DNA from: an uncultured delta proteobacterium
GTDB taxonomy: Bacteria > Desulfobacterota > Binatia > UBA9968
Direction: 5' to 3'
DNA: 64,000 bases
Assembly (NCBI GenBank): GCA_963745835.1
Contig: CAVUZH010000008.1
Location: forward strand, 92,835 to 156,834
How positions within the stretch are numbered: position 1 is the stretch's first letter; each line of letters begins with the position of its first letter. A program made the translations under genes and the position numbers. Below are positions 38,670 to 52,755 of this stretch, piece by piece. The notes below the pieces were generated by a model. That model worked only from the letters and a program-made list of their open reading frames with translations. It was not told the DNA's origin and ran no database searches.

Positions 38670-38679
38670 AAGATTACCT

Positions 38680-38865
38680 CGTGTTTACGTGTTCGTGTCG
38701 GGGAAGTACCGTGTTCGTGATTCGGAAGAAGCCGTGCTCGTGTACGTGACTCGCAAACCGCTGTTATTCGCCCCCATGCCCAAATCTCTTTTTCCGCTCA
38801 GACCACGAACACGGCACTTTTCACACCACGAACACGATTTTTTTCCGAGTCACGATTACGTCTGA
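38680..38865. repeat. periodic palindromic element: 3 x CGTGYTCGTG units (38688, 38710, 38733) facing 3 x CACGAWYACG units (38804, 38827, 38851)
   Basis: Decamers read directly from the sequence. Spacing is 22-24 nt on each arm and the arms are symmetric about ~38773. Confidence 0.8.
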
Positions 38866-38887
38866 ACTCGAAAACACTATATGGGTC

Positions 38888-39262
38888 TCACCGAGAATGT
38901 GATTTCGATTTCTCATTCAGCGATTGCGACAGGCGCAAAAGCATTCGGATAACGCGGTCGTAACCGGAGCGCAGTTCCAGGTAAGTTTCATTTGAAATGT
39001 ACTTCAAATCCCGCGCGAGAAGCAGTTGATAACATACTTCCCCTGCCGACCCTCTAGCGATTCCAACAAACTGCCGATATTCACGGCTACCTAACCTCAT
39101 AGCTCCTTCCATCAGGTTCATGCCCACTGAAGTTGCCGCTCGTCTGGTCTGTTCAATGAGGCTGAACAATTCTCTTTTCGGAAAAGCTTTCGTTATCAAA
39201 TAAATTTTGAGCGCCAGCTCATGAGCGAGCTTGAAGACATCAAGATCTTCCACCCGATTCAT
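38888..39262 (-). CDS. four-helix-bundle protein (23S rRNA intervening-sequence protein / Avd-like family)
   Basis: 124 aa. Family-typical text: FKLAHELALKIYLITKAFPKRELFSLIEQTRRAATSVGMNLMEG...GSAGEVCYQLLLARDLKYI. Confidence 0.85.
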   Translation of the reverse strand: MNRVEDLDVFKLAHELALKIYLITKAFPKRELFSLIEQTRRAATSVGMNLMEGAMRLGSREYRQFVGIARGSAGEVCYQLLLARDLKYISNETYLELRSGYDRVIRMLLRLSQSLNEKSKSHSR

Positions 39263-40305: not shown

Positions 40306-41271
40306 TCAATTTTGGTAGCGGATGCGTGGATCAAGCCAGCCATAAAGAATGTCGGCCAGCAGATTAAAGAACACCACCGCGACGGCGAGAATCATGACCA
40401 CCGTCATGGCAATGACATAATCATTGCCCATCACCGAAGTGTAGAGGAGCCGGCCCATTCCGGGATAAGCAAAAACAGTTTCGACCACAGTCGAACCGCC
40501 GATTACCCGCGGCATCGTCACCGCGATAATGGTGACCACGGGAATGAGCGCGTTCTTCAGAGCATGACGGCCGATCACGGTCTGTTCGCTCAATCCCTTC
40601 GCCCGAGCCGTGGTCAAATAGTCCTGCCGCAACACCTCCAGCAAACTTGAACGCATAAATCGCTGCACCTGAATGATTTCCGAAATCGCCAGCACCGACA
40701 CCGGCAATATGAGATGTTTCATCCAATCGACCGTCGCTTCCCAGGTGCCCGGCGTCAGGTCGGGATTGACGATGCCGGAAGTGGGCAGCCATCCGAGTTT
40801 CACGGAAAAAAGGATGATCATCATCAACCCGAGCCAGAACGCCGGAACCGAATAGGCGACAAAGGTCAGCGCCGTCAGCAGGTAATCGCCGATGGAATAT
40901 TGCCGAACCGCGGAAAAAATTCCCAAGGCGATTGCGATCAGTTTGCCGATGACCACCGCCGTGATCGTCAGCACCAGAGTATTTTTCAACGCCGGAATAA
41001 TGATATCGATCACCGGCTGTCCATACTCGCGCGAGTAACCGGGGTTCAGTTGAAGCAACTGCCAGAGCCACTTCCAATATTGAATGTAGAAAGGATCGTC
41101 GAAACCGTAGAGCTTGCGCAACCGTTCATAATCTTCCGGACGAAGGTTGGGGATTCCCTCGAGCATCCGGTAGAGCGGATCCCCTGGCATGGAATAGAGC
41201 AGGAAAAAAATCAGAGCGGAGACGAAGAAGAGCAGCGGCACGAGCTGGATCAGACGACGGAAAATATACAA
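40306..41271 (-). CDS. ABC transporter permease (DppB/OppB type)
   Basis: N-terminus MYIFRRLIQLVPLLFFVSALIFFLL and LTTARAKGLSE text typical of the family. Confidence 0.85.
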   Translation of the reverse strand: MYIFRRLIQLVPLLFFVSALIFFLLYSMPGDPLYRMLEGIPNLRPEDYERLRKLYGFDDPFYIQYWKWLWQLLQLNPGYSREYGQPVIDIIIPALKNTLVLTITAVVIGKLIAIALGIFSAVRQYSIGDYLLTALTFVAYSVPAFWLGLMMIILFSVKLGWLPTSGIVNPDLTPGTWEATVDWMKHLILPVSVLAISEIIQVQRFMRSSLLEVLRQDYLTTARAKGLSEQTVIGRHALKNALIPVVTIIAVTMPRVIGGSTVVETVFAYPGMGRLLYTSVMGNDYVIAMTVVMILAVAVVFFNLLADILYGWLDPRIRYQN

Positions 41272-41297
41272 AAGACATTAAAGCTCAACTGAAAGTC

Positions 41298-41424
41298 GTT
41301 CCACACGTTCCACCTGTTCCAACGGTTCCAGCCGTTTCAAGAATTGAGAACCGCTAAATCAACAGCCGATTCCGCTTCCGCTTTTAACGATTGGAACGTT
41401 TGGAACTACTTGAACGACTGGAAC
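41298..41424. repeat. periodic palindromic element: 5 x GTTCCA-NNN (exact 9-nt phase 41298/307/316/325/334) facing 4-5 x TGGAAC (41392/401/410/419)
   Basis: Hexamers read directly. There is a ~43-nt spacer. Lies between the SBP stop (41572) and the permease start (41271). Confidence 0.85.
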
Positions 41425-41571
41425 GCTTTGATTTAAGTCTTATCCCACTGCTGCATGTTCCAACTGCTAGAGTTTTGCCCGCCGCTTTCCTGCCGCGGCG
41501 TCACTCCCGTGAGGCCTCTTTTCACCACGAGGATTTCCGGCGAGTAGTATAGCGGCAGGTGCGGCAGCGCT

Positions 41572-43161
41572 TCAGCTAAACATTTTGAGAAAGTCCAGTT
41601 GCAGCTGCTCCGAGCGCGCTTCCGGAATAATCGAGTTGATCTCGTCCAGAATCGCGTCTTTACGCGGATCATTCCAACCGGAGACGTTTTCTGGAGCATA
41701 CTTGTTCTCGGCCGTGGGAATGTTCTTGGTGTGAAACCGCTCGGGCCATTCTTCCACTGTAACGTTATGCGAACCGATGAACGCGCCGGGCCAACGATTG
41801 CGGTTATCCGCTGAGTTGAGCAATCGGTTCGGCAGATTTTTGATATTGCCGCGCACGCCGATCTTCTTCCAGTAATCGGCGATAATCGCCTCGGCCTGCT
41901 CATGGTCGCGCCGTTCGGCGGTGACACGGAATTCGAACTCCATCCGCTCGCCTTTAGCATTCGTCAAAATGCCGTCGGAGCCCGGCTTCCAGCCGGCTTC
42001 GGCGAGAAGTTTTTTTGCCCGTTCCGGGTCGTACTTATAGATGGTCACCGTCGACAGCGCTTTTTTGTAAGTCTTGCGGACCCGCGACAGCGGGATATCC
42101 GAGACCACTTTCTCTCCCCTGAACATGTTCTGCACCATCGCGTCGCGGTCTATGGCATGCAGCAACGCACGGCGCACACTGACATCACTGAACAGTGGGT
42201 TGTCGCGGCTCAGGTTGAGCCAGGTCCAGGAGGCAGGGCTGATATGCACTTTGCCTTTTCCCGTCTTCTCCCACTGATCGCGCAGGATCATCGCGCCATC
42301 GAAAGAAATAGTGCTGCGCATGCACAGGTCCACTTCTCCGGCCAGCACCGCCGCAAGATTGGTATTGTTGTCCTCGACGGTTTTGTAAGTCACCCGGTCG
42401 ATCTTGGGCTTGCCGAGCGCAAAGTCATTGAAGGCTTCGAGCTCCATGCGGCTGCCGGCGTCCCATTCCACGACGCGGTATGCCCCGGCGCCGATGAAGT
42501 TTTTGTTCCAATAAGGCAAATTGGCAAATGCCTTCATATCGCCGGCGTTGAAGGCTTCCTGCAACAGGTGGCGCGGAAAGGCGCGCACGTGAGTGTACTG
42601 GATCGCATAAGCCTCGTTGTAGAGATCATTCCAATGAATCACGAGGGTGCGATCGTCTGGCGTTTCGATCTTTGAAATCATTTCCGGCACGAGCCGATCC
42701 GGCATAGGAAATTGCGGATGTTTCGCAATCTGCCAGCCAAACTCGAAATCTTTGGAAGTGTACGGCTTGCCGTCATGCCATTTGAGATTGGGACGGAGCT
42801 TATAGACCGTGATCATGGTTTTTTTCTGAGGATCGATCTTCCACGTTCCCTTCTTAACCGAAGGCAGTTCCTCGGCCAGCACCGGTACGCGTTCGAGAGT
42901 TGCAGGGTTTTGACCGACCAGGCCGGCATCCACCATGGACACATGCTCTGTCTCGCGACGATTGTGATAGCCGAGACTCGTCACTTGACGCTCGCCATGA
43001 ATGATGATTCTTTTTCGCGCGGGTTGAGCGGCAAAGAGTGGCGCTTTCGGCCACGGCAGAGTGCCCAGCGCCGCCGCGCTCGTGCCGGCCAATTTGATGA
43101 ATTGCCGCCGGCTCAGATTCCCGCCGGTATTCCTATCTGATTTCTTGTTCCGGTCTGACAT
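41572..43161 (-). CDS. ABC transporter substrate-binding protein, family 5 (peptide/nickel type)
   Basis: Twin-arginine-like leader SRRQFIKLAGTSAAALG. Start moved to ATG 43161 behind AAGGGAGGA. Confidence 0.85.
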   Translation of the reverse strand: MSDRNKKSDRNTGGNLSRRQFIKLAGTSAAALGTLPWPKAPLFAAQPARKRIIIHGERQVTSLGYHNRRETEHVSMVDAGLVGQNPATLERVPVLAEELPSVKKGTWKIDPQKKTMITVYKLRPNLKWHDGKPYTSKDFEFGWQIAKHPQFPMPDRLVPEMISKIETPDDRTLVIHWNDLYNEAYAIQYTHVRAFPRHLLQEAFNAGDMKAFANLPYWNKNFIGAGAYRVVEWDAGSRMELEAFNDFALGKPKIDRVTYKTVEDNNTNLAAVLAGEVDLCMRSTISFDGAMILRDQWEKTGKGKVHISPASWTWLNLSRDNPLFSDVSVRRALLHAIDRDAMVQNMFRGEKVVSDIPLSRVRKTYKKALSTVTIYKYDPERAKKLLAEAGWKPGSDGILTNAKGERMEFEFRVTAERRDHEQAEAIIADYWKKIGVRGNIKNLPNRLLNSADNRNRWPGAFIGSHNVTVEEWPERFHTKNIPTAENKYAPENVSGWNDPRKDAILDEINSIIPEARSEQLQLDFLKMFS

Positions 43162-43366
43162 CAAGTATCCTCCCTTACCGCTACGATGGTCGGCATCCAT
43201 ATAACTAACCTCGAACTTGAGTGTCAATCGATATGGTCCGATAGCCTATTTGTTGCCGCGCTGCCGATCACCGCCGCTTGCGGAAATATCTCTGTCACTG
43301 GCTTCCTTGACAAGGCTTTAATCGAGGGGATAGAACAAACAATCTAATTTATTAAGGAGAAGCCCC

Positions 43367-44071
43367 ATGGCAGTGGATAATTTTGAGGATCATTGTTGGA
43401 AAGACGTTGTCACCCCGGAAATTCTTAAGACCTACACCCCGTATCATCGCGAGACCTTTATCGGCCAGAGACCGGCGCTGCTGGCCATCGATCTTTACAA
43501 CCTCGCCTACGAAGGCGGCCCTAAAGAGCCTCATGAGCTGGTCGATACCCATAAGAGCTCATGCGGCGTCTACGCTTACAACGCCATCAAGCCGACCCAG
43601 GAACTGTTTGCGCTGGCGCGTTCGCTAAAAATTCCGATCTTCTACACCACGACGGAAACTCGCAAGGAAGCCAATCCTGATAAGGTTTATGCAACCAACC
43701 GGCAGCGGGTTAAGATCGATCCGCAAGCCTTTGAAATCCGCGAAGAGTTCAAACCCGAAGCCGATGACGTGGTCATCTTCAAGGAGCGCGCCAGCGGCTT
43801 CTTCGGCACGCCGCTAATCGCTCATTTGACACAGAAAGGGATCGACAGCCTGATCGTCTGTGGCGAAAGCACCAGCGGCTGCGTCCGCGCCAGCTCAGTG
43901 GACGGTTATTCGCTGGGATATCACGTTTCGATTGTCGAAGAGTGCGTCTTTGATCGCAGCCCGCTATCGCACAAGGTCAACCTCTTCGATATGCATCACA
44001 AGTACTGCGACGTGATGAAGCTCGATGAAGTAAAAGAAAAGATCAAACAAGAGCGCCCGCGCGCTAAGTAA
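43367..44071 (+). CDS. isochorismatase-family cysteine hydrolase
   Basis: LIVCGESTSGCVRASSVDG catalytic-Cys text. ATG follows AAGGAGAAG. Confidence 0.85.
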   Translation: MAVDNFEDHCWKDVVTPEILKTYTPYHRETFIGQRPALLAIDLYNLAYEGGPKEPHELVDTHKSSCGVYAYNAIKPTQELFALARSLKIPIFYTTTETRKEANPDKVYATNRQRVKIDPQAFEIREEFKPEADDVVIFKERASGFFGTPLIAHLTQKGIDSLIVCGESTSGCVRASSVDGYSLGYHVSIVEECVFDRSPLSHKVNLFDMHHKYCDVMKLDEVKEKIKQERPRAK

Positions 44072-44076
44072 TAGAC

Positions 44077-44180
44077 GTTCCAATTGTTGCAATCGTTTCA
44101 AATTGTTCCACTGAGATGGTGCTAACACCTCGCGGCGTTAGAAACACTGGAACGGCTGGAACATTTGGAACTGTTGGAAC
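44077..44180. repeat. second copy of the 9-nt GTTCCA / TGGAAC periodic palindromic element
   Basis: GTTCCA-like hexamers at 44077/086/095/104 face TGGAAC at 44148/157/166/175, with exact 9-nt phase on both arms. Confidence 0.85.
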
Positions 44181-44195
44181 CTGTTTTTCAATCCG

Positions 44196-44993
44196 ATGCC
44201 CTACAGCACCGCCAACGGTCTCAAAATCTACTACGAAGTCTCTGGCGAAGGATTTCCCTTCGTCATGGTCCATGCCAATCCGTTCGATCATAACTTGTGG
44301 ATGTATCAGATCGCGCACTTCTCGACCTATTTCAAAGTCATCGCCATCGATATCCGCGGTTACGGTCGTTCGGACAAGCCAAGCACACCATTCACACTAA
44401 AAGACATGGCCGACGATGTTCTTGGGGTGTGCCGCGATGAGAGCGTCACGGAAGCCATTCTGGGCGGCGTGAGTGTTGGCTCAGGAATGGCGCTTCTGCT
44501 TGGCCTGGATTATCCGGAACTGTTCAAGGCTCTGATCCTGGTCGGCGGCAGCAGTGGTCCCGGCGGCGCCATCGATGAGCGAATTCATGGTTATACAAAA
44601 ATCGGCGTCGAGAAATACCACATTCAACACCTGAAGGAACTGGTCGCGCCGGATTTTCCCCAAACCAAACTCGGTAAATATCTGCTCAACACCTACGTCG
44701 AGAGGGATCCGTGGCTCTCCGGAGAATCCATCGCCCAGATCTTTCGCGCCCGTGGCGGGACCGACATGACGCCGCGGCTCGGATCGATGAAGGTGCCGAC
44801 ATTGGTGATCAACGGTGAATACGACAACTCTCTCAAAGCCGGCCAACGCACCGCCTCGCTGATTCCGGGCGCCATGCACAGGATCTTGCCGAAGACCGGC
44901 CACGCCTGCTGCATCGAAGATCCAGCCGGCTTCGATGAGTTCGTCATTGAATTCTTGCGCGCCAATCGTCTCCTGCCGAGTTCGCCGAGTTGA
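44196..44993 (+). CDS. alpha/beta-fold hydrolase
   Basis: HG-type oxyanion region FVMVHANP, nucleophile elbow GVSVGSG, C-terminal GHACCIEDP. Confidence 0.8.
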   Translation: MPYSTANGLKIYYEVSGEGFPFVMVHANPFDHNLWMYQIAHFSTYFKVIAIDIRGYGRSDKPSTPFTLKDMADDVLGVCRDESVTEAILGGVSVGSGMALLLGLDYPELFKALILVGGSSGPGGAIDERIHGYTKIGVEKYHIQHLKELVAPDFPQTKLGKYLLNTYVERDPWLSGESIAQIFRARGGTDMTPRLGSMKVPTLVINGEYDNSLKAGQRTASLIPGAMHRILPKTGHACCIEDPAGFDEFVIEFLRANRLLPSSPS

Positions 44994-52594: not shown

Positions 52595-52755
52595 ACGAGC
52601 GCGGAATTTCGCTCAAGAGCGCACGGACTCTGTTCGAAAGTCGTTCCGTAGCATGTCGAGGCGAGTTTCACCATCCTTACTTTGCTTCTCAGGATGATAT
52701 TGGCGGTGTAACGAAATATTCGTTTAAACAAGAGAGTTCGTTTTAGGCTACACAT

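Follow-up and report, generated by a model that had tools for sequence, protein, structure and literature searches.

A phased GTTCCA array between a binding-protein gene and a permease gene in a Binatia genome belongs to a lineage-wide superfamily of intergenic mosaic palindromes

The element between the binding-protein and permease genes and its second copy

The DNA analysed here, referred to as the window, is a stretch of 64,000 nt from an uncultured delta proteobacterium (Desulfobacterota, Binatia, UBA9968; assembly GCA_963745835.1, contig CAVUZH010000008.1, positions 92,835 to 156,834 of the forward strand). At 41291-41431 it holds a two-armed array of GTTCCA-type units with a 9-nt period (element 1, strand unassigned), which fills the gap between a solute-binding protein (SBP) gene and the first permease gene of the same operon. 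We conclude that element 1 is a member of a superfamily of intergenic mosaic palindromes that extends across the lineage, and its family identity is secure.

The left arm of element 1 (41298-41339, + strand) consists of GTTCCA at 41298, 41307, 41316 and 41325 and of GTTTCA at 41334, in exact 9-nt steps and with CAC, CCT, ACG and GCC as linkers. The right arm (41392-41424, + strand) carries TGGAAC at 41392, 41401 and 41419 and TTGAAC at 41410, likewise with a 9-nt period. The initial annotation of the window, made from its letters, had described five GTTCCA-like hexamers facing four TGGAAC-type hexamers, all in 9-nt steps, and these positions were confirmed; the spacer of about 43 nt given there was found to be an inter-arm distance of 52 nt. 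This variable core (41340-41391, strand unassigned) shows no relation to the cores found in other copies or at the orthologous sites of congeners. A search of the window for the two-unit pattern with at most one mismatch returned 11 matches against 0.19 expected, a number reached in none of 100 shuffles, so that the array density is far above that of shuffled DNA.

Pfam assigned the neighbours of element 1 to an SBP_bac_5 gene (41572-43227, minus strand) and two BPD_transp_1 permease genes, the first of which (40306-41271, minus strand) has a TTG start at 41271, with an in-frame ATG a few bases upstream in congeners. The operon lies on the minus strand, which corrects the earlier description. 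A 1-nt frameshift near 41576 truncates the SBP open reading frame (ORF) as called, with its stop at 41572. In three congeners the protein is read in one frame to ...LDFLKMFTEALPHLPLYYSPEILVVKRGLTGVTPRQESGGQNSSSWNMQQWDKT (end NMQQWDKT), whereas the window needs a frame change near 41576, and an RNA contig of a relative has one base fewer at 41576. Because of the single frame in congeners and the missing base in the RNA contig, the true SBP stop was placed at 41433-41435. The true C-terminal coding part of the SBP_bac_5 gene (...EALPHLPLYYSPEILVVKRGLTGVTPRQESGGQNSSSWNMQQWDKT*; 41433-41575, minus strand) is out of frame with the upstream part owing to the 1-nt indel near 41576. It follows that the real gap is 41272-41432 (161 nt) and that 41433-41571 is coding, and element 1 starts 8 nt past the true stop. 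Its placement between the SBP stop and the first permease start therefore stands, with boundaries other than those first drawn. Compared with the three congeners and the RNA contig, the indel shortens the called SBP ORF by about 46 codons. In the permease gene, a conserved ATG at 41278 is offset by 1 nt from the frame of the TTG-start ORF, while the counterpart ATG in congener G004 is in frame. Both the indel and the frame offset could be long-read assembly errors or real pseudogenisation.

Element 2 (44072-44190, strand unassigned) fills the gap between an isochorismatase-family gene and an alpha/beta hydrolase gene, as identified by Pfam, and it ends in CTGTTTTTC, 6 nt ahead of the hydrolase ATG at 44196. 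Its left arm (44077-44110, + strand) is partly decayed, reading GTTCCA, GTTGCA, GTTTCA and, after a 10-nt step, GTTCCA; its right arm (44148-44180, + strand) comprises four perfect TGGAAC units with a 9-nt period. The second copy proposed for 44077-44180 is thus real. The hydrolase ATG comes after the T-rich tail of the element (CTGTTTTTCAATCCG), with no Shine-Dalgarno sequence visible in 44181-44198, and several other downstream genes begin 4-25 nt from an arm.

A 12-nt match to the element edge, GAAAGTCGTTCC, had been noted at 52637-52648, just downstream of an SBP gene. It lies at 52636-52647 (+ strand) as a single match with no array around it, and by our own arithmetic the roughly 290 12-mers of the region would yield about two such matches by chance alone. 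It was rejected as a third copy.

A genome-wide family of two phased hexamers

The genome comprises 7.28 Mb in 25 contigs, with 53.8% G+C. A whole-genome search for the three-unit pattern (at most one mismatch) yielded 152 matches, compared with 0 for the backwards control, and successive GTTCCA words were most often spaced 9 nt apart (177 cases). When every hexamer was tallied (three repeats, periods of 7-12 nt), the tally showed GTTCCA at 9 nt with 78 occurrences, GTTCAA at 8 nt with 37 and GTTCAA at 9 nt with 17. Leaving aside the frame-shifted reading of GTTCCA, the only other repeat above 15 was AAAATC at a 7-nt period (17 occurrences), probably a single tandem array. Strong phasing of hexamers in the genome is confined to GTTCCA with a period of 9 nt and GTTCAA with one of 8-9 nt. 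A minor phased word, ACTCCA with an 8-nt period, gave five triple matches genome-wide.

Counting arrays of at least three exact GTTCMA units (M being C or A) gave 167 arrays at 128 loci, against 0 in the reversed genome, in support of the dispersed repeat family read into the element by the initial annotation. Each arm holds 3-7 tandem units, the unit being GTTC(C/A)A followed by a linker of 2-3 nt, and two subtypes can be told apart, GTTCCA with a 9-nt period and GTTCAA with a period that is mostly 8 nt and ranges from 7 to 10 nt. Elements run from a GTTCMA array through a core to a TKGAAC array, and the cores, 15-270 nt long, are unrelated from copy to copy. Two-armed loci are almost all convergent (28, with 1 divergent), and the arms of one element mostly agree in subtype and period (19 pairs of the GTTCCA type, 13 of the GTTCAA type and 5 discordant). 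A further 97 loci are one-armed or have arrays in the same orientation; the partner arm is absent in 26 of the 97.

The linkers had been described as neither conserved nor mutually complementary. The second part holds: genome-wide, 56 pairs of facing linkers formed 60 Watson-Crick pairs, compared with 66.7 ± 5.6 for shuffled partners. The first part does not hold as worded, the linkers showing position preferences, with a purine at position 7 in 93%, G at position 8 in 3 of 210 and C at position 9 in about half; the commonest ones resemble one-step neighbours of ATC. Among 108 pairs of exact GTTCCA words at a distance of 18 nt, 78 enclose an intact middle word. Other modules found in the elements are the motif CGCTKCGCTCC and an inner palindrome, GTCAGA..TCTGAC, the latter typical of the GTTCAA subtype. 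Relative to transcription, CGCTKCGCTCC was antisense in five cases and sense in two, numbers too few to interpret.

The commonest 9-nt GTTCAA units (GTTCAAAAC, GTTCAAGCC and GTTCAAATC) match the tRNA T-loop consensus GTTCRANNC; the GTTCCA units and the 8-nt period do not fit this consensus, and the likeness is probably a coincidence. On contig C13 (C13:17000-38000), same-orientation modules of the form GGATCGAGCC-GTTCCA-NNN-GTTCCA-(C)CGCTTCGCTCC-GTTCAA are clustered, several of which precede (GTTCAANN)4 and, immediately ahead of small ORFs, a leader-like box that recurs, TTCCACGTTTCGAGAATTCCCGAAA, which gives this region a cassette-style appearance.

That the arrays reflect chance, low complexity or a coding tri-peptide repeat is so improbable that we give it next to no weight. 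A pattern scan of species genomes did return, among the matches listed, cases in Streptomyces, Saccharothrix and Alphaproteobacteria with identical linkers that resemble coding or simple tandem repeats. In the genome studied here, however, the shuffles and the empty backwards and reversed controls refute such an origin, and a coding repeat was rejected, the elements being intergenic, their arms inverted and the hexamer fixed at the nucleotide level without synonymous variation.

Persistence of sites and turnover of elements among relatives

For comparison, 41 genomes of relatives were used, 25 of the same taxonomic family (18 genera) and 16 from two sister families. GTTCAA arrays were present in all 25 genomes of the family (2-164 matches each, controls 0), and the 16 sister-family genomes had 0-1 each. 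GTTCCA triple units were found in 17 of the 41 relatives, covering 10 of the 18 genera of the family and none of the 16 sister-family genomes. With 78 such units the present genome is the richest, followed by one of another genus with 54, and congeners have at most 23. The composition of the linkers varies between genera and the hexamer is constant.

In nine alignable pairs of orthologous elements from congeners, hexamer positions were 96.2% identical and linker positions 64.8%, compared with 80.8% in the cores and 86.2% in the 40-nt flanks, the linker value overstating point mutation because the aligner favours hexamer-on-hexamer placement and slippage of units reshuffles linkers. The share of intact middle words given above (78 of 108), which is less prone to this bias, agrees with the contrast. 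The number of units shifts by whole units, as at the site C18:206724, where G004 has two units fewer.

At the SBP-permease site, the element of four congeners, whose flanks are 92-98% identical, is of the GTTCAA type and differs in its core; a second genus has another variant, and a third genus is without an element. At the isochorismatase-hydrolase site, an inverted GTTCMA array was present in all 12 loci of relatives for which both flanks were recovered, representing at least six genera; it is of the GTTCCA type in two of these loci and of the GTTCAA type in most. Among the orthologues of 44072-44195, the loci L148-L157 show in the right arm, where it separates two TTGAAC units, an asymmetric insert of 12 nt, GGAGCGCAGCG(A), which is conserved in several genera and would give a fixed-sequence bulge in the hairpin.

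When 14 further elements were compared with four congeners, 13 of the 14 sites were occupied wherever the locus was found. Five of 12 sites examined in detail carry the GTTCCA type here and the GTTCAA type with unrelated cores in congeners, and many sites show a replaced subtype and core between flanks that are still 90-98% identical. The sites are old, and their occupants turn over. At the site orthologous to C16:362203-362319, one congeneric locus (G006:C2:143400-144400) has an 865-nt insert in place of the 117-nt element.

Such replacement within preserved flanks is what would be seen if the arrays were purely selfish mobile or recombinogenic DNA, similar to miniature inverted-repeat transposable elements (MITEs) or to the paired repetitive extragenic palindromic (REP) sequences known as REPINs, with no host function and with the hexamer as target or recognition site of the mobilising enzyme; arrays would then persist as new copies land in or convert old ones. 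The expansion of the GTTCCA subtype in the present genome, together with array birth and decay, fits this explanation, which we nevertheless consider unlikely. No target-site duplication was detected above a shuffled-partner control. The copies share no core, so that no master copy is evident. Between forward and reverse arrays 0.3-6 kb apart no autonomous element was found, three ORFs having been judged by eye, with no likeness to a transposase and no domain search. The occupation of 13 of 14 sites in congeners also speaks against it, and the occupation of the element 2 site in at least six genera implies little recent movement. A MITE was rejected on the missing target-site duplication, the unrelated cores and the missing autonomous partner.

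Genes with the Y1 transposase domain (PF01797), to which the REP-associated tyrosine transposases (RAYTs) are similar, occurred in 39 of the 41 relatives and equally in array-free genomes, and no intact Y1 gene of the present genome had arrays on both flanks. Mobilisation by a RAYT, as for REPs and REPINs, was rejected on these grounds. Arrays near Y1 genes were confined to one decayed paralogue family (PRANRHFLPGYVWHITHQC...), in which a one-armed GTTCMA array with CGCTGCGCTCC lies inside the ORF, inserted exactly after a native CAGTTCC (C2:12449-12782; C5:167230-167534; C5:170451-170558; C13:590950-591217; C22:96792; C22:103958; C22:281099-283348). In two further copies, C20:75336 and C15:31714, this site is empty, which can be counted in favour of mobility. 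This is one historical event, and it hints that an array may be seeded or attracted by a GTTCC already in place. A second palindromic insert of 30 nt is also present in this family.

Further known families were compared with the elements. A REP-type single palindrome of 20-40 nt was rejected, the arms being arrays of 8-9-nt units whose linkers lack covariation and the array having no conserved head outside it. An integron attC site was rejected because GTTCCA and GTTCAA do not fit GTTRRRY and because the 128 sites are dispersed and ordinary intergenic ones, an integrase not having been searched for. By-eye resemblances to attC, a sigma-54 promoter, an IHF site, a DnaA box, the CsrA GGA motif and a Rho rut site were dropped. 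No Rfam family reached the gathering score anywhere in the window, and none reached E ≤ 1 in 41200-44300. In the literature on GTTCCA/TGGAAC repeats, periodic REPs and Binatia repeats, no description of the GTTCMA family was found.

Placement, transcription and possible role of the elements

Gene context was taken from our own crude codon-bias calls (6259 genes, 80% coding). With respect to these, 87% of element bases lie outside genes, and many copies leave no more than 2-30 nt between themselves and the gene on either side. Element density per 100 kb of intergenic DNA was 12.5 in convergent, 7.5 in tandem and 3.8 in divergent gaps, and elements were present in 31 of 867 convergent gaps compared with 12 of 870 divergent ones (chi-square ~8.7, p ~0.003, by our own arithmetic). 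At least five T in an 8-nt window just outside the arm were found at 39% of element ends, compared with 8.6% of random intergenic 12-mers, a 4.6-fold difference. Placement after SBP genes did not prove to be a property of the family: only 1 of 12 SBP_bac_5 paralogues has a downstream array, compared with 1.9% of all genes, and the link seen in the window is therefore a coincidence.

Folding of the RNA of 41285-41440 (minus strand) gave a minimum free energy (MFE) of -53.9 kcal/mol with z = -4.1, and that of 44065-44195 an MFE of -40.2 kcal/mol with z = -3.7. Both predicted folds are long stems of 6-7-bp helices with internal loops, and the stem of 6-bp helices separated by 3x3 loops foreseen for element 1 was recovered. 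A simple terminator scan called neither window copy.

Evidence on transcription came from assembled soil metatranscriptome contigs of close relatives (90-99% identity), in which carry-over of DNA is possible. One contig, of 915 nt, links the isochorismatase and hydrolase genes, element 2 being replaced in it by 148 other letters; a 151-nt contig spans 44037-44188 itself, and a 399-nt contig joins the 5' end of the permease gene to 41432-41462 with 192 other letters in between. Since these contigs span the elements into the neighbouring genes, the elements appear to be part of polycistronic RNA, and transcription appears not to be fully stopped by them. Contig depth was about 10-25 for the SBP gene and 0-9 for the permease gene, depth being a poor measure; of the differential stability of the malE-malF type that had been suggested for element 1, this leaves a weak hint.

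REPs and bacterial interspersed mosaic elements (BIMEs) are known for holding species-specific variants at the same intergenic sites, and REPs for giving differential mRNA stability, with malE-malF as paradigm. The GTTCMA elements resemble REPs, BIMEs and REPINs in being interspersed, intergenic, hairpin-forming and mosaic, biased to gene 3' ends and operon interiors, and apparently transcribed with their neighbours. The REP-like behaviour expected in the initial annotation was accordingly borne out for intergenic location, 3'-end bias, apparent co-transcription and the sharing of sites with relatives in which the subtype is swapped. They differ from REPs, which are imperfect palindromes of 20-40 nt with a GTAG-type head and a covarying stem and which flank RAYT genes, in being phased arrays of a 6-nt word with non-pairing linkers, with neither a GTAG head nor an association with RAYT genes. 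By functional analogy, judged on location, modules, co-transcription and shared sites, they can be classed as BIME-like mosaic intergenic elements.

With intrinsic terminators the elements share a predicted hairpin directly after the stop codon and a U-rich tail, found at 39% of ends, and their symmetric build suits convergent gene pairs in which the element is the sole intergenic sequence. They are unlike such terminators in having stems of 30-45 nt that are broken every 6 bp and AU-rich by the tail; moreover, many lie inside operons, and RNA contigs read through them.

These comparisons suggest that the elements may act as REP/BIME-like transcript hairpins at gene ends, the most parsimonious reading of their function and a plausible one, for which we find belief and doubt evenly balanced. 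In the transcript, the two arms would pair to give a long interrupted hairpin just past the stop codon, followed at about 40% of element ends by a U-rich tail. Such a hairpin may serve as a leaky terminator and, in the manner of REPs and BIMEs, as a barrier against 3'-exonucleases. At element 1 it could determine how much binding-protein mRNA there is relative to permease mRNA. The support is circumstantial, coming from location, tails, arm concordance and transcription.

Several points weigh against this account. The evidence bearing on termination, RNA stabilisation or processing is indirect, consisting of assembled contigs of related strains in which depth is a poor measure and carry-over of DNA is possible, and the gene context rests on the crude calls given above. 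The linkers show no covariation between arms, so that selection cannot simply favour stem stability. In about a quarter of the one-armed arrays the partner arm is wholly missing, and their hexamers are still perfect. With 128 loci for about 6000 genes, the elements are far too few for general terminators, and a hairpin function by itself leaves unexplained why the same hexamer is found in every copy and genus.

The perfect one-armed arrays and the fixity of the hexamer at the nucleotide level point to a factor that reads the hexamer. Such a putative factor, suggested by strict hexamer conservation as opposed to free linkers in every copy and genus, may be the enzyme behind the spread or homogenisation of the elements, or else a protein of the host that binds nucleic acids. 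The hairpin and the hexamer reader are compatible with each other.

In a rival account, which takes up the arrayed protein-binding sites offered as an alternative in the initial annotation, the arrays would be cis-sites for a multimeric protein that is specific to the lineage and binds DNA or RNA; a global regulator, a nucleoid protein and a ring-shaped RNA binder are examples. The hexamer would then be the contact and the linker the spacing, and hairpin potential would be secondary or controlled by the protein. We regard this as possible and hold it with more doubt than the transcript hairpin. It would account for the 96% conservation of hexamers against 65% of linkers at orthologous sites, for the identical hexamer in all copies and in 18 genera, for the strict phasing within a subtype and for the linker preferences, a purine at position 7 and almost never G at position 8. 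It also agrees with the existence of truly one-armed arrays with perfect units and with linker composition that is specific to the lineage around a constant hexamer. No candidate protein was found, however, and the 7-10-nt period of GTTCAA is awkward for helically phased binding to double-stranded DNA. Convergent orientation, arm concordance, U-rich tails and 3'-end bias are, in addition, what a transcript hairpin predicts and a DNA operator does not.

Arrays that are read cooperatively by ribbon-helix-helix proteins offer a comparison, namely the omega heptads of pSM19035 and the ACTC boxes, with an 8-bp period, of the parH centromere of TP228. They are similar to the GTTCMA arrays in combining a word of 4-7 bp, a fixed period of 7-9 bp and direct as well as inverted blocks, and differ in being single plasmid loci beside the gene of the binder, whereas here about 130 chromosomal sites have no linked gene.

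The closest precedent by analogy is given by the paired tandem-repeat sites of Geobacter metallireducens (Aklujkar et al. 2009, PMC2700814). The available part of that paper describes three classes with 24, 21 and 8 pairs, built from GTTGCTYN x4, TCTCCGTS[Y] x3 and MTYCTGA x5, and proposes that the paired sites bind unidentified global regulators, possibly of the IHF/HU type, which lends some support to a binding protein for the similar arrays described here. As far as that part goes, both systems consist of two sites on opposite strands, each with 3-5 tandem units of 7-9 nt, at variable distance, intergenic and lineage-specific. The unit word and the phylum differ, and copy number is in the tens per genome there, compared with 128 loci here. 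The statement in the initial annotation that the architecture can be assigned to no named family is to be revised in the light of this precedent. The persistence of sites with subtype replacement, the contrast between hexamers and linkers, the 3'-end bias, the U-rich tails, the evidence for transcription and the family-wide presence go beyond what the available part of the paper reports.

Short tandem heptamers, namely the STRR sequences of cyanobacteria and the TAACTGA repeats in Beggiatoaceae, Cyanobacteria and Bacteroidetes (PMC4679880), likewise consist of a short fixed word repeated 2-6 times or more, are intergenic with many loci per genome and are patchy across phyla. Unlike the GTTCMA arrays, which are inverted pairs around a core and favour 3' ends, they are contiguous without a linker, almost always direct (1 indirect among 170 sets) and located just upstream of start codons.

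The pattern scan of species genomes mentioned above yielded at least 119 stretches, many of them in metagenome-assembled genomes (MAGs) labelled delta-proteobacterium, Binatia or Syntrophobacteraceae, some with 88-96% identity to the present genome. Among the matches listed, two-armed 9-nt GTTCCA arrays were also seen in MAGs labelled Vicinamibacterales, Acidobacterium, Microthrixaceae and cyanobacterium and in a MAG of 45% GC mislabelled Citrobacter, with linker composition differing in each of these. Because of the arrays in the Vicinamibacterales, Acidobacterium, Microthrixaceae and mislabelled Citrobacter MAGs, the GTTCMA arrays might be a cross-phylum device of soil bacteria, serving as cis-sites either for an undiscovered multimeric protein that binds nucleic acids in a sequence-specific way or for an enzyme by which the arrays are written or homogenised. 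This extension is speculative and in our view improbable. If true, it would imply post-transcriptional or chromosome-structure action at about a hundred gene boundaries per genome.

To our knowledge, the closest named relatives of the present organism are MAGs labelled Binatia or delta-proteobacterium without cultured members, in which the shaping of transcripts is undescribed. The family provides about 130 marked gene boundaries per genome and is a clean lineage marker, being present in 25 of 25 genomes of one taxonomic family and essentially none of 16 sister-family genomes. The contrast between hexamers and linkers would be an unusually sharp signal of a factor that reads a 6-nt word at fixed spacing. 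Two questions become testable with these elements, namely what maintains REP-like repeats and what paired tandem-repeat sites of the Geobacter type do. Intergenic polymorphism is concentrated at the elements, and annotation can confuse them with small RNAs or with arrays of a CRISPR-like kind.

At the end of the same ABC operon that contains element 1, a different palindromic array element was observed at 38670-38887. Decamers of the CGTGTTCGTG type recur in it every 22-23 nt and oppose CACGAACACG units across a core, so that the design of array, core and inverted array is repeated with another word and another period. It is adjoined by an Avd-like gene (PF05635, 23S_rRNA_IVP) at 38888-39262 on the minus strand.

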